This document shows, piece after piece, positions 30,560 to 59,635 of a DNA stretch of 64,000 nucleotides; within the stretch, counting starts at the first letter, position 1, and every line of letters starts with the position of its first letter. The notes below the pieces were generated by a model. The model ran no database searches. It was given only the letters and a program-made list of their open reading frames with translations, and was not told where the DNA came from. Origin of the DNA: Octopus vulgaris (taxonomy: Eukaryota); NCBI GenBank assembly GCA_951406725.2, contig OX597843.1, forward strand, positions 14,074,001 to 14,138,000, given 5' to 3'. The translations under genes were made by a program, and so were the position numbers.

Positions 30560-30628
30560 CATGCCGAAGTAAGCAAACAGTTGAAAGATGAAAAGAAGTT
30601 AACAGAAGAAAAAGACATGTTATTAAAG
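30560..30628 (+). CDS. HIP1: HIP1 exon L: HAEVSKQLKDEKKLTEEKDMLLK
   Basis: gtcttgtag / gtacga, 69 nt, phase 0-0. Matches NAEVTKQV. Confidence 0.9.
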
Positions 30629-32979: not shown

Positions 32980-35694
32980 TTATTATTATTGTTATTATTA
33001 AAAAGGTAAGTGTGAGAGGTCCCACCTTCTGTATAAATCATAATATTTCTGTTATAATTTACAATGGGGTTATAAGAGAACTACAAAACCAGAGCCTTTA
33101 ACCCTAATGAAATCATAGGATATTCTGAATACTGAACCCCTTTTTCATTGTGCCACCAGGTGAGATCCATCACAAACTAGGATTCATACAGAAGGTGGGA
33201 TCTGTAGCACTTTCCTTTTTCTCTCCTTTTTTTTTTGTTTTGTTTTCTATGTTGTTGTTTCTTACCCACATGGCTCCCTTTTACACAGCTGTTATATTTG
33301 AGTTAAATTTCTAAATTAGTTTGTCTGCATATATGTATATAAATATGTATGTATATATATAAATTTAAGCCACAATATATGAATTCATTTAATCTGGTGA
33401 AACTCATTAAAAAAATGCTCCTGAATGTATCTTTCAACAAAACACATACAAAAGAAAAACATGAGAAATGTATAAAATTGTAAATAACGAGAGAAATATA
33501 CCTATATAAAAGAGGAAAAAACTTGCATGCTTTGGCTTTGGTAAGGATTCAATGGCACTAGACATGCTAGGATCAAGCTAAAAATTTACACACCTATAGA
33601 AGGCGTGGTGTTGTTGCGGCCAGAGTAGGTTTCAAGTCTCTATCTCGATAACAAAGGCCCGAAACAAGGCATTTTCTGTGAGTGAGTGGATGTCATACAC
33701 TATTGCCTTGAGTTGTGTTCACGCAACATGTTGGATTCTACATGTGACTGTGTTTACGCGAATGCAACGGAAACATTCAATTTTTGAGTTTTTTGAAAAA
33801 CAAAATATGAGCATATACGTATAAAAATTTCCTGAATCGATTGGAGCAAGTTTGAATTCTCTAGCTTGAAAAATGCAAATTCTAGCAGTTTTGAGTGTGC
33901 CTTTTTAAGGAGTTCTCAGTTGAAAATGGTGTCAAAAAATAGCTCAAAATGAGAGAATTATTTTGCAGATCGAATCACCTCAAAAATCGAACGGGAAGTG
34001 CTCTTAACCTATATATATAAAGCTGAAGTTGTCTGTGTGTGAGGGGCGAAACAAACCCGAGCAACGCCAGGTGATACTGCTAGTATACTACTATAAAAGA
34101 AATAAATTTTATAAAAGTATATTTCATATACATGTATATCTATATACTCACATACACACACATATATATACATGCAGTATAAAAAGGAAGAATGAAAGGC
34201 AAACAATTGGTATTAATTTAGAGTCTGGAATTTATCTTCCTCATTTAACGTCCATTGTCCATTCTAGCATGGGTTGGATGGTGTGACCAGAGCTAGCAAG
34301 CTGGAGAGCTGCACCAAACTCCAGTCTGTTTTGGCATGGCTTTTATGTCTGGGTGCCCTTCCTAACATGCCAACCACTTCACAATGTGTGTCGGGTGCTC
34401 TTTTAGATGGCCCTGCATGGACACTTTTATGTGACACTGGCTCAGGACTTGCAGGGCAATCCTGTCCAGCAGGGAGACTGGTTTTAATACTTCTGCATGG
34501 GTCTTCTCAAGTACCACAAGGAGCCGGGCATCTTGGCCCTTTGTATCTCACCCAAAAGATTCAGCCTTCTGAGGTCATTCTTCAGTACTTTCTTCCACAT
34601 CTTCCTGGGTCTCCTACTTTCACATGTCCCATCCACTTTCAGAGATTGGCGCTTCTTTAAGGAGCTGTTGACATCCATCCACATCACATGACCAAACCAA
34701 CACAACCTTCACTCTTGCACACAGCATATATTTAATAATTGCAGGGTTGTTAGAATAGTGTATCATAGAAATAAGGGTATAAGATGTGCAGACAGTCTTT
34801 TACAGCTGTTTCCTGAACAGACGTACATATGGTGCATTTCTCTGTGGTTGAAGATCAGCATTCCATATAATAGCAAAGGGAAAAAAGAAGTGGATCCCTA
34901 GTTGAGGATTTTAGTAGTTAGTAGTTTCCTTGTTGAAGGGAGAGTGAGGTAGGTCATTAGTGGAATGGCCTGTGTTTTTTTGGGGTTTTTTTTCAGTTCA
35001 AGTTGGAGTTTTAGGTGGTAAATCAACAGGAAAACTTATTGTGTATATTTATTTGATTATGTCATTAGCCACAATTTCACCTGAACACTATATTGCCACC
35101 ACCATCATCATCATCATCATCATCAGTCTGTTTTCCATGCTGGCATGGGTTGGATGGTTTGACAGGAACTGGTAAATCGGGGGACTTCACCAAACCCTAC
35201 TGTCTGCTTTGACCTGATTTCTTCAGCTGGATGCCCTTCCTAACGCCCCCGCTTCACCCCCGGAAATCTCTTGCATTATGGATGCTTCACATTCCAGTAA
35301 GTTCTTTAGCATAATGTAGGATTCTACAACACAAAAACCTGTTTTCCCTTTGAGTTCTGTTGAAAATGAAAGTTGCAGACAAAACTAGGTTTTTCTTGCG
35401 GATCTTTCCAGAATTTTCAGGACATAACAGTGGACATATGTATGTATGTGCCATCACCATCATCATCATCATCATCATCATCATATTAACCATTTAATGT
35501 CCGTTTGGCTTATGATTTTTAGATCATGACTACAATATCCGACAGCACATTGAACTGGCAAAAGTGAGGTGTACCAGTAATTTCAAAGGGCTCAGCCTTG
35601 TTACATTCTGTTTCAAGCTGAATCTCCCTGAGAACTACATTAGGGGTCCACCTGTATCTGTCCAGTGCTCAGCTCCTTGTACATTAATTTGGTC

Positions 35695-36121
35695 TCAAGC
35701 ATTTGTCTTATGAAGAAAGGCTGAAGACGCTCGACCTTTATTCTCTAGAAAAACTACGACACCGTGGTGATCTCATTCTTGCTCACAACATCATAAGCGG
35801 AAAGTGTAACCTCTTGAAAGAGCTGTTCTTCACTCCTGCTCCAGAGCGTCAGCTGCGGGGTCATTCCGAAAAGCTCTATCTGCAACGATTTCATCTCAAT
35901 CGAAGGAGAGGGGCTTTCTCCATCCGGGTTGCAGATCCGTGGAATAAGCTGCCGGACGAGATAGTGAAGATGCCGACGACCGCTCGGTTCAAAGTCTCTC
36001 TTGACCAGAAATGGCCTGAACTCTTTGCATGAACACCACCCTGTACATAACTCCATGTCCCCCTACGTGGCCTTGCTTTTTGCTTTTTGAGCCAAAAAAT
36101 TAACTTAACTTAACTTAACTA
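35695..36121 (+). mobile_element. 5'-truncated CR1-clade LINE fragment
   Basis: SYEERLKTLDLYSLE..RGDLI..RGHSEKL..WNKLP peptide and (TAACT)n tail. Confidence 0.9.
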
Positions 36122-37992: not shown

Positions 37993-38812
37993 TTTATATG
38001 CATATTGAAATCACAGTGGTTGATACTAGTGTTGCCTGACTAGCACCCATGCTGCTGGCACATAAGTGCCATTCAAGCATGAATCAATGCATGTAAAAAG
38101 CGCAATCCGAATATGGTGGATGCCAGTGACCCCTGACTAGCTCCTGTGCCGGTGGCACGTAAAAAGCACCATTGAAACATGGTCAATTCAAGTGCCCCCC
38201 CACCAACTCGCTCCTAGGCTGATGGCACATAAAAAGCGCTCCCCACACACTCGGAGTGGTTGGTGTTAGGAAGGGCATCCAGCAGCAGAAACCCTGACAA
38301 ATCAGATTGGGGCCTGGTGCAGCCTCCTGGCTTGCCAGTCCCCCGTCAGACTGTTCCACCCATGCCAGCATGGAAAGCAGATTTTAAACGATGATGATAT
38401 GCATATGCTTATATAAATTGGTCTCTTAGATCTCTGAGGAGGTAAGTATTAAGGTGAGCAACATTTTTCTGTTTTCCATATTTTAACTATTCTTCTTGTT
38501 GTTGTAATCAACTACGTATGCTCGTTAGTAAAATCCAATTTAGACTTCTGTTCATTTTCCAATTTCCTTGCATCTTGTTGTTGTTTGATGTTTGTTGTCA
38601 CAGACTGCACCCTCCCTCCCTACATGACCCCTACACGATGTCTGTACTGTCCTTTGTAATTCCTCCCCCGACCACGTTTTCACACTGGCTTTCTGTTCCG
38701 CCATAACCTGGTAGAAATAGCAGCCAAATCTCCCTCACATCACATTCCATGGAATGTTTTTTTTTTTTTGGTGTCATAGGATGGTTCCTTCAGGGTTGAC
38801 TTGGACCTAAAC

Positions 38813-39013
38813 CAGTGCTTTTCAAACTTTTTGCTGGAGCGGAACCCCAAGGAAGCGTTCCACTGGCCAGAGGAACCCCTGTGCAATAATTTAATAGTTT
38901 TATGCACACATATCTGCACAGGAGAATTAAAAATTACTGCCGATTTTAGCAGTTTTGTAACTTCTTGCGGAACCCCTGGATTGTACTGGTGGAACCCTGG
39001 TTGAAAACCACTG
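38813..39013. mobile_element. hAT (Charlie-like) MITE
   Basis: TIR CAGTGCTTTTCAA / TTGAAAACCACTG, 8-bp TSD ACCTAAAC. Confidence 0.85.
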
Positions 39014-39335: not shown

Positions 39336-40057
39336 TACATACATATATATTATAATATGACAGGCTTCTTTCAGTTTCCGTCATTGACCAAATCCACTCG
39401 CAAGGCTTTGGTCGGCCCGAGGCTATAGTAGAAGACACTTGCCCAAGGTGCCACGCAGTGGAACTGAACCCAGAACCATGTGGCTGGGAAGCAAACTTCT
39501 TACCACACTTGCCATGGTCATCTTTTAAACGGACAGATTTGGGATGAAGAGAAAGCTGGAATGGTCATGGCAGGCTGACCTTTAGCCATAGGTCTCCTCA
39601 ATCAAGTATCAAATTTTCTACATGCATATTCAGCCTTTTAGAAATAGCAGCTAAAATCTCCTTCAAATTTTAAAAAGGACTCCTTCTTTGAATGATGTGA
39701 TTCCTTGCACATAACAACAGGGTGGTCATGGTTGGTACAGTATTGATCATAGCTCTACTGGATCATGACTAACCTAGGGCTAAACAACCTCCTCCACTTC
39801 TCATTCCCTTCTCTTCCGACTTCATTTTTGTTTTTTGTTTGTGATATTTTGTTAAAAAATTTTTTTAATTTGTTGTTTTTATTTTGTTTTTCTTTTTTTC
39901 TACCCTTCACCCCCCCACCACCACCACCACTCGCCTCCCGATTTTGCCATTGTGGCCTGAAATTGACCTCTGGGTCCACCTTGCATGCTTTGACCCACTG
40001 CGTTCTACCCTGGGTGTGGGTTGGCTGGGCTGTGATTTGAAACCTTGAACCTAGTAG

Positions 40058-40195
40058 AAGACAACCAGTGAGCTGGACAGTGTCCGTGAAGAGCAGAAAC
40101 AGCTTGAGGTGGCCACCCAGGCCAAGACTGACCAAGTCTCCCTCCAACTGCAATCCTCCACTCAACAATGTTCACAACTGGAGAAATCTTGTCAG
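40058..40195 (+). CDS. HIP1: HIP1 exon M: KTTSELDSVREEQKQLEVATQAKTDQVSLQLQSSTQQCSQLEKSCQ
   Basis: Open coiled-coil-like frame, donor CAG|gtttgt, 138 nt, phase 0-0. The acceptor is a tandem ctag-tag-aag, so the exact start (40058 vs 40061) is uncertain. Confidence 0.82.
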
Positions 40196-41057
40196 GTTTG
40201 TTATTCCTTTTTTTTTTTGGTCCTGTTTCTTCTCCCTCCTCCCTACTGGTCCCCCACTTTGCCCTCCATCCACTCCTTCACCACTCCATCCCCATCTCAT
40301 TCCTCCCTGACCTCTATCGCCTCTGACCTCCATCCTCCTGTCATTCATTCGGCCTCCAGTTGTCCATCTACCCCTCCCCTAATCTCCATCTCCCACTCCC
40401 TCTTCCATCCACCCCTGCCACCCGGTTAACACCGAAATCCTCCCTACCCCCCTCCCCTGACCACCATCCCTCTGTCATCCATCCATGCCCCTCCCCCAAG
40501 CCTCCATCCACCCGACAGCTTAGCCGTGCCTCTGTTTACCAATTATTGAGGGTAGACATCATTTGGGCTTCTTTAGGCCATCATTGATGACGTGGGATCA
40601 TGTGACTGGGTGGGTGCTGGGAAGTGTTTCTTCAGAATCGCTGCTTTCAGTTTCGGATACAGAAATATCCTATTCATTCTCGTACACCACGTGCTTTTGT
40701 ACCTCATTCATTCTTTCTCTCAATATTTCCATATTTTCCATTGAAAGACCTTCAAATTCGGAGTTATTGCTTGATAGCATGAAACTTCTGTCCATTTTCA
40801 AAGTTGAAAAAAAAAATTAATGCCGTAAAAATGTGGAAAAAAAATCTCCCAAAATTCACTGAGTTCAGATATTGGGTCAAGCAATGTCGGGTACTATAAC
40901 TCAACTATTTGCAAAGTGAAATCACGTATTTTCACAAATGTACTAATGAGATTTGTGCTTAAATTCACATTTAAATAACAGTGGGTACTCGCGGCCTGGT
41001 TGGAACCAAGAAATTTTTCAGCCAGCTACAGCCGGGTTAGTATCAAAAGTGTTAACA

Positions 41058-41824
41058 GACAAACATGGACATCTGGTAGAAAAATATGACAAATGTGGAG
41101 ATCTCGTAGAACAATATGATGAACTGGGACATCTGGTAGAACAATATGATGAACTGGGACATCTGGTAGAACAATATGATGAACTGGGACATCTGGTAGA
41201 ACAATATGACAAATGTGGACATCTGGTAGAACAATATGACAAATGTTGAGATCTCGTAGAACAATATGACAAACATGGACATCTGGTAGAACAATATGAC
41301 AAATGTGGACATCTGGTAGAACAATATGACAAATGTGGACATCTGGTAGAACAATATGACAAATGTGGACATCTGGTAGAACAATATGACAAATGTGGAC
41401 ATCTGGTAGAACAATATGACAAATGTGGACATCTGGTAGAACAATATGACAAATGTGGACATCTGGTAGAACAATATGACAAATGTAGACATCTGGTAGA
41501 ACAATATGACAAACGTGGACATCTGGTAGAACAATATGACAAATGTGGAGATCTCGTAGAACAATATAACAAACGTGGACATCTGGTAGAATAATATAAC
41601 AAATGTGGACATCTGGTAGAACAATATGACAAACGTGGACATCTGGTAGAACAATATGACAAACGTGGACATCTGGTAGAACAATATGACAAATGTGGAC
41701 ATCTGGTAGAACAATATGACAAACGTGGACATCTGGTAGAACAATATGACAAATGTGGACATCTGGTAGAACAATATAACAAATGTGGACATCTGGTAGA
41801 ACAATATGACAAATGTGGACATCT
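41058..41824. repeat. 30-bp minisatellite, ~25 units of GGACATCTGGTAGAACAATATGACAAATGT
   Basis: Exact 30-nt period visible in the 60-column layout. Confidence 0.97.
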
Positions 41825-42324
41825 AACTGGACGGACAGGCATGAGCGTTTGGTTGAACAGAGACACAAAAATATTTGACTGGACACATGGATATCTGATA
41901 GAGAGACACAGACTGGACATCTGACTGGACAGACAGACATGTAGACATGAGGTTGCTTGCCCGATTGTCCAGGACCTCCAACCGGTGATGGTCAATGATA
42001 AGTAATCAAAATTAATCCCAGCGCCACCAGAAACCAAAAAAAAAAAGTCAAAAAAAGAAATGAAGACATTCTTTTTGAAAACGAAACCCCAAAAAGTCTT
42101 TTGTATTTTTCCTTGTTGATGTTATCGTTGTTGTCATTTCCTTTCAGTAGAAAATCTTGGAGTCTTCTGCAATGTCCCGATTTGCATCTTGCATGGGTGT
42201 CTTCTCTCCGTTCTCTCTTATTCTTGTCTCTTTGTTGCTCGTCGCATGCCCCAAAACACCGTCTTGTGGAGCATGCATTCTTCATTGTAGTTGATAATGC
42301 CATCATCATCATTATTATTATAAC

Positions 42325-42360
<36 letters not shown>

Positions 42361-42619
42361 GGTTGTTGTTGTTGTTGTCGTTGTCTCCAGGCTAGTTAGT
42401 GTCTGTCATAGCAGAGTAACAAAATGCTTAACAACTGATATTATTCTCTCTTTTGGGGGCCATGTGTACTTTAACATACATGTCTGTCCGTATGTCTGTA
42501 TACATATTTATTGCATTCACTCTTTACCTCCCTCTCCTCCCCTCTATCTATTTATCTCTCTTTCTCTCTCTTTGTGAGTAATGTATGTATGTGCCCCCCA
42601 TTTCTCTCTCTGTATATAT

Positions 42620-42838
42620 CAGTGCTTTTCAAACTTTTTGCTGGAGCGGAACCCCAAGGAAACATTCCACTGGCTCGAGGAACCCCTGTGCAATAATTTC
42701 ATAGTCTTATGCACACATATCTGCACAGGAGACTTAAAAATTACTGCTGATTTTAGCAGTTTTGAAACTTCTTGCGGAACCCCTGCACTGTACTGGCGGA
42801 ACCCTAAGGTTCAGAGGAACCCTGGTTGAAAATCACTG
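42620..42838. mobile_element. hAT (Charlie-like) MITE, second copy
   Basis: Same body as 38813-39013; TSD GTATAT(A/G)T. Confidence 0.85.
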
Positions 42839-44734: not shown

Positions 44735-45435
44735 AATAAAAATAATAATAATTAATTCATGTATTGGCCACAAGGGCTAACAAAAATCAATTAAAACATA
44801 AAGGGACAAAACACAGGACGAAAGTTACAAAGGGTTTTGTCCATTTGAAAATGGCCGTGTACAAAATCAGGATAACAACGAAATATAAGTAACAATTAAA
44901 ACTGCCAATAGGGGGAGGCGCTTCGAAAGGTTACTTGTGGAAAAACCCATAAAAGCCACGGGAGCCTGGTCAAAAGGCGGAGTAGAGAACCCCTTTCTCC
45001 TTTTATATTTCCTTTTAATTTTTCACAGGTGTATCCTCAGAATTGGTCCATTCATACTGGCCATTCTTCCGACATTCACCCAGCTTTCAATAAACTTGCT
45101 ACCAGCCATCACTTCCCTCTCTACTCTCACCTTCCTTTGAAAAAGTTGATGAGGCCTTGGCCAAAGAGGAAAGTGTCTGACCGTAGCCCTTTCAAACGGG
45201 TCCACCATATCGCCTCTGTCGCTACAGCCACTAGGCAAAGGAAAACTGCCTTGCCCTCCCGGTTAAAGGAGGTCGGCGGGGAAATCCTCACTATGGATTC
45301 AGCTGATAGCCAGATCCGTCCTATACACGACAGTAGCTGTTCGATATAAACCCATAGTTCAGCAATACTCGGGCTCTGGACGAGTGCATGCAGAACGGTT
45401 TTGTCGTGCTGGGCGCACCTTGGGCAGGCCCGTCG
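44735..45435 (-). mobile_element. L1/Tx1-clade LINE 3' fragment
   Basis: Minus strand CPRCAQHDKTVLHALVQSPSIAELW (decayed CCHC knuckle), then AIWWTRLK, a 3' UTR and an (ATT)n tail. Confidence 0.75.
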
Positions 45436-45684
45436 TGTGTGTTATGCCTCTGGCTCCCACTCTCTTCCACTATGCGTGTGTGTGTGTCTGGCTCTCTTTT
45501 TCTTCTTCACCCTCTCTCCCCCTTATTTTTCTCTCTCTTTCACTCTCTCTCTATTTCTCTCCTTCACTCTCTCTCTCTCTCTCTCTGTATATATATGTCT
45601 ATATCTACATATCTATATACCTATATGCATATATGTATCTTTTTCTCTCTCTCTCTCCTTTGTCATGCACACTCTCGGGGACAG

Positions 45685-45822
45685 GCTGCTACTGCCGCTG
45701 CTGCTGCTTCCCAAGGCAACCACCCATCCTCCACGACAGCAGCAGCCTCATCACCACCGCTTCCGCCATTACCATCACCACCACCGCCACCACCAGCCCA
45801 ACACACCAACGATGATTATGAG
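45685..45822 (+). CDS. HIP1: Candidate alternative cassette exon, Ala/Pro-rich: AATAAAAASQGNHPSSTTAAASSPPLPPLPSPPPPPPAQHTNDDYE
   Basis: First AG after about 255 nt of AG-free pyrimidine-rich sequence, donor GAG|gtaaag, 138 nt, stop-free, phase 0-0 like the host intron. No homology support. Confidence 0.45.
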
Positions 45823-52766: not shown

Positions 52767-53172
52767 GAATTGACCAAGGAAATCGAATTAATCAAAGCCC
52801 AGAAGCTCCAGCTGGAGACGGATCTGAATGACGTCCGTTCCAGCAGCCTTGCATTGGAGGAAAGCCTTCAGGTGACGAAGACGGAGAAAGAGGAAACGGC
52901 GGAAAAACTGCAGAAGCAAGTGAACTGTTTACAGAATGAACTGGAAGAGAAGACCAAGGAGATGGTGGTTGCTAAGGAGACGCTGCAGAAGGAGATGGAA
53001 GGGGTTCAAAGCCAACTGAAGAGCAGCCAAAGTACACAGCAGACAGCAGAGGAGAATTATACCAAAAATAAAGAGGAGATGGAGAGGAAATACGAAGATT
53101 TATTGACGGAAAAGAAAACCAGCGACAATGAACGTGAAGAGGCCCTCAAGAAACTCTACCAATTACTTATCG
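52767..53172 (+). CDS. HIP1: HIP1 exon N (long coiled-coil exon): ELTKEIELIKAQKLQLETDL...EEALKKLYQLLI
   Basis: CT tract + gacag / gtaaga, 406 nt, phase 0-1, E/K/Q-rich heptads. Confidence 0.93.
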
Positions 53173-57761: not shown

Positions 57762-57919
57762 TTAATCTGATGGGTTACTCTACGCTTTTGTAGAGTAGAA
57801 ATTTATTTATTAACTTCAAAGTCATCCTCAATAACATTCTTGTATAAGAATTATATATATATATATACACACGCACACACACATGCATAAAATGTATATT
57901 GCCCATCTATCTCAACTTT

Positions 57920-58870
57920 CCTGTTCCCTTTTACCCTCCTGTCCTTTTTGCCCCCTCTTTCCCCCTCTTACCTTCCTGACCCTTTTGTCCCCTCTTATCC
58001 TCCCATCCCTCTTACTCTTCCATCCCTCTTACCCTCTTGTCCCCCCTTTACCTCCCATCCCTCTTACTCTCCCATCCCTCTTACCCTCTTGTCCCCCCTT
58101 TACCTCCCATCCCTCTTACCCTCCTGACCCTCTTGTCCCCTCTTACCCTCCCATCCCTCTTGTTCCCTCTTACTCTCCCGTCCCTCTTGTCCCCTCTTAC
58201 CTCCTGACCCTTTTGTCCCCTCTTACCCTCCCATCCCTCTTACCCTCCTGTCCCTCCTACCCTCCCATCCCTCTTGTCCCCTCTTACCCTCCCGTCCCTC
58301 TTGTCCCCTCTTACCTGCTGACCCTTTTGTCCCCTCTTACCCTCCCATCCCTCTTACCCTCCTGTCCCTCTTGCCCTCCCATCCCTCTTGTCCCCTCTTT
58401 ACCTCCCATCCCTCTTACCCTCCTGTCCCTCCTACCCTCCCATCCCTCTTGTCCCCTCTTACCCTCCTTCCCTCTTGTCCCCTCTTACCTCCCATCCCTC
58501 TTACCCTCCTGTCCCTCCTACCCTCCCATCCCTCTTACCCTCCTGTCCCTCTTGCCCTCCCATCCCTCTTGTCCCCTCTTTACCTCCCATCCCTCTTGTC
58601 CCCTCTCCTGTCCCTCTTGTCCCCTCTTACCTCCTGACCCTCTTGTCCCCTCTTTACCTCCCATCCCTCTTACCCTCCTACCCTCCCATCCCTCTTGTCC
58701 CCTCTTACCCTCCCGTCCCTCTTGTCCCCTCTTACCTTCCTGTCCCCTTTTACCCTCCCATCCCTCTTGTCCCCTTTTACCCTCCCGTCCCTCTTACCCT
58801 CCCGTCCCTCTTACCCACCTGTCCCTCTTGTCCCCTCTTACTCACCCGTCACTCTTGTCCCCTGTTTCTC
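57920..58870. repeat. Pyrimidine-rich cryptic minisatellite of 9-10-nt modules (CCCTCTTAC, CCTCCCAT, CCCTCTTGTC)
   Basis: Direct inspection; source of the Pro/Leu/Ser ORFs. Confidence 0.9.
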
Positions 58871-59635
58871 TTGCCTCCAATTGCTATCCTGTTCCTCTTT
58901 CTACTACTTATCTCCTTTAACTCTCTTGGTCCCCTTTGCCATCCTCGACCCTTTTCTCCCCTTTTAATCTCTTGTCCCCTCTGGTCTCCTGTCGATCCTG
59001 TTCTCTCTACAAACCAACCAAAGACCAAAATGTTTCAAGGCTGGAATCGTTTAGGGTCTGGCTGTACAGGACCAGGGACCAGGCCTGTTCACCTCTCCCT
59101 TCTTAAAACAACAACTGTTGCCTTATTGCTTTTACTCTCTCTCTCATCCTCTTCTTTCACACATGGAAAGCACCCCCTCCTCTTCTGCTCCCATTTTACC
59201 AAGAAACTGGGTTTCTCCATGACCATCTCTTCTTATTTAGACCCTCCACAGTTACACTCTCATGTGTGCATTTTCTTTTTTGCCCCCCCCCCCCCCCGAC
59301 AATAAGCTGGGTTTTCCACCCTTCTTTCTCCCTCATATTCTCTCCCTCCCTCTCTTACACATTCTTTCATTGTCCCTCCTTTTTATTCTCTCTCCTTTCT
59401 CTTTCTCTCTCACCCTCTCACTTTCTCTTTCTCTCTCCCTTCATTACCACATCCCTCCCTCTTTCTTCTTCTCTCTCACCTCCATCCCTCTCTTCCACCT
59501 CTCTCAGTCTCTCCCTCCCCCTCCTCCTCCCTTCTCTCCAACCTTTTTCCTTATCTTCCTCTTTCCCACCTCACTCAGTTTCTCTCTCTCCCACCTCACT
59601 CTCTCACAGTCTCTCTCTCTTTCTCTCTCTTTCAG

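Follow-up and report, generated by a model that had tools for sequence, protein, structure and literature searches.

How does the octopus HIP1 gene splice an exon whose acceptor offers three AG dinucleotides in a row, TAG TAG AAG, the first of which would make a stop codon the opening codon of the exon, and what is the meaning of the roughly 275 nt free of AG that precede it? The preliminary description of this locus proposed a switch in which acceptor choice would toggle between full-length HIP1 and either a target of nonsense-mediated decay (NMD) or a truncated protein. We analysed the whole 64,000-nt stretch of Octopus vulgaris DNA concerned (hereafter, the window), which covers the middle of the HIP1 gene (contig C30 of the 2.8-Gb genome). 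Protein searches supported the gene and exon identity initially suggested, named matches of the exon, called here M, being HIP1 of Octopus sinensis (100%) and Octopus bimaculoides (91%), and the window agrees with O. vulgaris wherever its proteins and those of O. sinensis diverge. Pfam and PDB matches include the ANTH and I/LWEQ domains diagnostic of the HIP1/Sla2 family. As in other members of the HIP1/HIP1R/Sla2 family, an ANTH domain, a coiled coil, and a talin-like domain are all present; the octopus gene differs in carrying a pair of cassette exons, M and N, within the coiled coil, a feature absent from the literature surveyed. On a different contig of the genome, a further but incomplete ANTH match has a TAG inside it (G000:C27:7793721-7793849), and is either a gene piece or the exon of a paralogue. 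Several Octopus HIP1 proteins (P0001, P0002, P0004, and P0006-P0008) also show a further optional exon of 15 aa and alternative ends near the C-terminus, outside the window.

All exons of interest lie on the forward strand. Exon L (30560-30628, 69 nt, encoding HAEV...DMLLK) ends with a phase-0 donor, AAG/GTACGA, and its end is matched by the loose ends of two spliced contigs (X13 and X15, see below). Exon M (40058-40195, 138 nt) is a cassette exon that encodes 46 aa resembling a coiled coil (KTTSE...SCQ). Exon N (45685-45822), also of 138 nt and 46 aa (AATAAAA...PPLPPLP...DDYE), is Ala/Pro-rich and is used as an alternative to M or added after it, and exon O (52767-53172, ELTKE...) is the common downstream exon, to which M is directly joined in both spliced contigs. 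Exon N combines an alanine run with a proline-rich stretch, SPPLPPLPSPPPPPP, inside the coiled coil; this stretch resembles an SH3-binding motif. Various repeats surround exon M. It is flanked by two direct copies of a short element (38808-38998 and 42615-42805, 191 nt, 93% alike) whose ends look by eye like inverted repeats, and about 0.9 kb downstream there is a 30-nt tandem repeat (41058-41830, 25 overlapping windows in register) with long open frames containing GHLVEQYDKC units. The L-M intron also contains an open frame of 114 aa (35688-36029) that resembles the tail of a LINE-type reverse-transcriptase protein.

The sequence features reported in the preliminary description are all at the positions given: a GACTAAC motif at 39767-39773, a TGCATG at 39982-39987, an AG-free zone between 39778 and 40052, and then TAG TAG AAG. 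The AG preceding the zone is at 39776-39777, and those following it are at 40053-40054, 40056-40057, and 40059-40060, the last one belonging to AAG, the first codon of exon M. Over the tandem acceptor the frame reads stop-stop-K-T-T-S-E and, since exon L ends with AAG/GT in phase 0, splicing at the first AG would indeed bring the first TAG (40052-40054) in frame, as had been claimed. It would be codon 493 of a 1075-aa protein, just after ...DMLLK and upstream of many exon junctions.

To identify the acceptor in use we compared four sequencing runs over the acceptor and exon M, out of 23 listed; all were available as contigs, and their kind (RNA or DNA) was guessed. Acceptors were read from the loose ends of the contigs, predicted at 40053, 40056, or 40058 for the first, second, and third AG, respectively. 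Contig X13 (organism A, depth 74) and contig X15 (organism B, from a different study, depth 44) both have a loose end at 40056 continued by letters of exon L, namely, the second AG, and both join M to O. All seven octopus proteins that contain M read LLK-KT[TN]SE, also the product of the second AG. The second TAG (40055-40057), with an exon start at 40058, is thus the acceptor in use in every RNA or protein record seen, and the postulated toggle has no counterpart in these two contigs and seven proteins, in which no first-AG junction occurs, with the limit that both kinds of record are blind to minor or degraded forms, contigs losing the minor ones and gene models leaving NMD targets out. Steady-state RNA can also conceal the use of an upstream AG (PMC1431707). 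The TAGTAG itself is neither an assembly error nor a private variant, two possibilities that had been raised against it: contig X1, unspliced, shows zero differences there, and X19, from a very close relative (organism D), covers 39975-40204 without any difference over 230 nt. Contig X1 (depth 6.7; it may be DNA) shows no A-to-G change at the TAGs, weak evidence against A-to-I editing, and the eight matches from 1903 candidates included no short protein terminating at DMLLK, likewise weak evidence.

Comparison with other animals shows which AG is the older one. We examined 68 lophotrochozoan HIP1 proteins and retained 65 after dropping three fragments, five distant (P0030-34) and eight short matches having been excluded beforehand; these are protein models, some of them derived from RNA contigs, and related species share them, so they do not count as independent events. 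Between L and O, according to alignment scores, 36 proteins have only M, 20 have M followed by N, nine have only N, and none lacks both. M is 46 residues long in all 36 M-only proteins, from octopus to bivalves and Lingula, and the same length follows by subtraction in the M+N proteins for which an N-only partner exists. E is the opening residue in 33 of 56 cases, K being confined to the seven Octopus rows. The constant 46-codon length in the 36 M-only homologues indicates that the second AG is the ancestral acceptor; from this register, the first TAG appears to be intronic, at -6 to -4, and the third AG merely part of the first codon.

The same proteins reveal that exon M is alternatively spliced. 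The nine of 65 that skip it, known from gene models rather than junction counts, belong to species of three mollusc classes (O. vulgaris, Pomacea, two Mytilus, Ostrea, Mizuhopecten, Mercenaria, Ruditapes, and Mactra). Six of the nine are RefSeq isoform models, which usually rest on RNA-seq. For O. vulgaris itself, skipping is represented by a single submitter's gene model (P0003), both spliced contigs being L-M-O. One M+N protein (P0025) carries extra residues that resemble a modelling error, and the Mactra HIP1 (P0021) is labelled 'histidine permease' by its source, apparently wrongly. N is far more variable than M: it measures 13-15 aa in snails and bivalves, where the Pomacea and Mercenaria versions are clearly alike, 46-48 aa in Octopus (48 in O. 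sinensis), and 31 aa in a protein derived from a contig and clustering with one of Sepia. Both cephalopod forms begin with AATAAAA. Given that its sequence varies between mollusc groups, the homology of N rests on position. The equal length of M and N in O. vulgaris looks like chance, since the two are dissimilar and N has 48 aa in O. sinensis. A duplicated exon pair was rejected (the local DNA score was matched by 9% of 500 shuffles), as was a strictly mutually exclusive pair, both exons being present together in 20 of the 65 proteins. Inverted repeats of the docking type near M and N, among the 25 longest of 76, consisted only of microsatellite or poly-T/poly-A pairs. Three metagenome matches examined as possible cephalopod DNA at the locus were all due to chance (31-32 of 118 flanking bases alike).

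The AG-free zone upstream of M (39778-40052, 275 nt) is the longest among the 20 acceptors of the window. Measured over all of them, AG-free zones reach 280 nt for M and 257 nt for N, the other 18 ranging from 21 to 153 nt (six of the 20 surveyed acceptor positions deviated by 1-2 bases, with no material effect on these lengths). The M zone contains no AG for nine GA, and base shuffles gave a probability of 0.0003-0.0013 for the absence of AG in two runs, for an interval bounded by AGs that were picked post hoc. Its last 113 nt are complex sequence with no AG and seven GA (P = 0.003), and the pyrimidine part taken alone gave P = 0.20. AG is not depleted in the window as a whole (observed/expected 1.01). 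Six AG-free runs on the forward strand are longer than the M zone, all of them of lower 4-mer complexity. One C/T-rich run of low complexity extends for 1175 nt (57847-59022) and adjoins no acceptor. The zone before N (45428-45682, 255 nt) is largely a CT/TA microsatellite (shuffle P = 0.02). The proximal pyrimidine tract, described at the outset as lacking, is indeed weak: the pyrimidine share at -25 to -4 of exon M is 0.50, tied for the lowest among the 20 acceptors.

A distal pyrimidine-rich tract (39789-39939, 119 C or T out of 151) instead occupies the 5' part of the zone. The preliminary description had pointed to GACTAAC, immediately upstream, as branch-like. This motif, together with the AG that bounds the zone, lies within a dispersed repeat (39717-39788, forward strand) that has at least 59 other matches in the genome, most of them over this part; a CTRAC occurs at the motif position in 18 of 20 aligned copies covering it (counted by eye; one further alignment stopped short). 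Because the motif is repeat-borne, its presence carries little weight and is in itself no evidence of a branch point, though it could be used, and it is one of 14 branch-like YTNA motifs within 39761-40056. Two others, TTCTCAT at 39803 and TTTTAAT at 39868, followed by 22 and 21 pyrimidines, respectively, in the next 25 bases, would be better placed as candidate branch points. A distant branch upstream of M is likely, and little weight attaches to GACTAAC as its specific site. Near the exon there is a weak candidate, ATTTGAA (40035-40041), with its A at 40040, 15 nt before the first AG and 18 nt before the second. TGCATG, an Rbfox-type motif, does not exceed chance (0.10 expected per 275 nt, 24 occurrences on the forward strand of the window) and counts for little as the signal it was taken for. 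A hairpin joining the distal tract to the AG was also discarded (fold z 0.36, 125 of 200 shuffles folding equally well).

We infer from these data that M is probably a cassette exon with a distant branch point: it is spliced at the second AG, and the AG-free zone would mark a weak acceptor that enables skipping of M or its exchange with N, as happens elsewhere among molluscs. Three parts of this reading are established: which acceptor is used, the register of 46 codons, and the isoform sets found in molluscs (M, M+N, and N). The branch point and its pyrimidine tract would lie 150-280 nt upstream of the exon, and the spliceosome would scan from there down to TAGTAG, where the second TAG may win owing to its G at -4, the first site having a C there and lacking an adjoining tract. 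If some splicing did leak to the first TAG, codon 492 would be followed by a stop and NMD would probably remove the transcript; such a leak would be noise and not regulation. Long AG exclusion zones mark distant branch points, and the verified cases are alternatively spliced (Gooding 2006, PMC1431707); the octopus zone, at about 275-280 nt, exceeds the 100-nt threshold of this class and has branch consensus motifs with an adjoining pyrimidine tract near its 5' end. Cassette exons are over-represented in this class, in which AGs separated by less than 12 nt compete with one another (PMC1431707). With TAG TAG and a pyrimidine at both -3 positions, the acceptor is a NAGNAG, for which a pyrimidine at -4 plus a short or distal tract goes with distal use (Bradley 2012, PMC3250501) and a G at -4 of the distal site confers distal bias (bioRxiv 10.64898/2026.08.05.741260). 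Conversely, among human zones of at least 100 nt the share attributed to distant branch points is estimated at just one half to one fifth (PMC1431707), human NAGNAGs are on average biased towards the proximal site by about 1 bit (PMC3250501), and, besides this average bias in the NAGNAG sources, pathogenic stop-creating sites are used proximally in minigenes (PMC3250501; bioRxiv 10.64898/2026.08.05.741260). Octopus introns are, moreover, rich in pyrimidine microsatellites, of which the N zone mostly consists, and the splicing rules applied here derive from mammals.

Other explanations share part of this evidence. The first TAG might take a steady 5-30% of splicing, cleared by NMD and devoid of selected function, a possibility that we find somewhat unlikely. 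Such a leak agrees with the proximal bias of NAGNAGs, with the pyrimidine at both -3 positions (PMC3250501), and with a noise model of tandem acceptors (PMC1449888), but it was not seen in X13 or X15, and the purging of AG from the rest of the zone suggests that a costly AG would not persist. It is compatible with the distant-branch-point reading, the two differing only in how large the leak is. More doubtful is an ordinary proximal acceptor, with a branch at about 40040 too close for the first AG to be used and an AG-free zone that is a by-product of low-complexity sequence. The position of ATTTGAA at -15/-18 fits this view, since a short branch-to-AG distance favours the distal site (PMC3250501), as do the repeat-borne GACTAAC and the pyrimidine part, AG-free with a probability as high as 0.20; against it, the last 113 nt are complex and lack AG despite seven GA, and 40040 is not followed by a pyrimidine tract (share 0.40).

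A regulated choice between the first and second TAG, setting the share of HIP1 that is sent to NMD or made as a 492-aa truncated form, appears very unlikely. Admittedly, the first TAG holds the AG that comes first once the long AG-free zone ends, it is in phase, and runs X1 and X19 both carry it without change. Scanning also gives the first AG an advantage, and its use may be masked by NMD (PMC1431707); proximal sites that are weak and have C or U at -4 rely on exon-ligation factors, which might allow tuning (bioRxiv 10.64898/2026.08.05.741260). Nevertheless, its junction is missing from both spliced contigs and all seven octopus proteins (sources blind to minor or degraded forms), the conservation of TAGTAG is known from one very close relative (0 differences, 230 nt), and noise together with NMD largely accounts for the small shifts seen at tandem acceptors (PMC1449888). 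We give as little credit to a more elaborate version, in which an old mollusc M/N cassette would retune the HIP1 coiled coil beside the clathrin-light-chain site and the octopus would have added a three-base kill switch, a cell-type-dependent stop at the first TAG degrading M transcripts so that N-only ones survive. By analogy with Drosophila Sex-lethal exon 3 and its two close AGs (PMC1431707), the tandem AG might also aid the skipping of M, and M is indeed skippable across molluscs; we hold this analogy to be highly improbable as the explanation here.

Set against known systems, the feature is real but its explanation is for the most part ordinary, and every element belongs to a known class. 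Like PTB exon 11, alpha-tropomyosin exon 3, and GABBR1 exon 23 (PMC1431707), exon M combines an AG-free zone of similar size, a 5' tract with branch candidates, a weak proximal tract, and alternative splicing. Unlike those distant-branch-point exons, it belongs to an invertebrate gene, its branch point is a candidate only, its zone ends in TAGTAG, and M and N can co-occur instead of being strictly exclusive. It shares with distal-major YAGYAG acceptors (PMC3250501) the pyrimidine at both -3 positions, the C at -4, the short or distal tract, and the distal use, and differs from them in its long zone and in a proximal form that contains a stop, a class omitted as NMD targets from the coding table of that study. 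The CFTR allele E831X (PMC2951375) also has a phase-0 NAG-TAG in which splicing at the proximal site makes TAG the first codon. In CFTR, however, TAG arose by mutation of the first codon, and one residue is lost when the distal site is used, whereas the octopus distal site is ancestral and yields the full 46 codons, its first TAG rather resembling the gain of an intronic AG. Among the literature surveyed, the printed cases of such stop-carrying tandem acceptors are disease alleles and a reporter. Our literature search found no publication on octopus NAGNAG acceptors and, among the titles and abstract beginnings of the best matches listed for HIP1 splicing, molluscs, cephalopods, and coiled coils (subscription journals being outside its coverage), nothing on the M/N exon pair of HIP1. 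The M and N isoforms themselves are already in public annotations.

At the protein level, we take the TLLRVH of octopus HIP1 to correspond to human DLLRKN; a comparison of the coiled coil with solved structures did not recover this link, giving three chance matches (E about 3). Replacement of M by N would take away some 6.5 heptads of coiled coil immediately following TLLRVH and add a non-helical linker. The coiled coil of HIP1 is bound by clathrin light chain, which lowers the binding of actin (PMC8712872). Were the first TAG regulated, which nothing here shows, the tandem acceptor would be a natural minimal poison switch and would matter more. If the distant-branch-point reading is true, exon M would be a candidate invertebrate distant-branch-point exon, and the choice of M, M+N, or N in the coiled coil of a clathrin-actin adaptor would be common to cephalopods, snails, and bivalves, which would be of modest interest for the evolution of splicing and for endocytosis.
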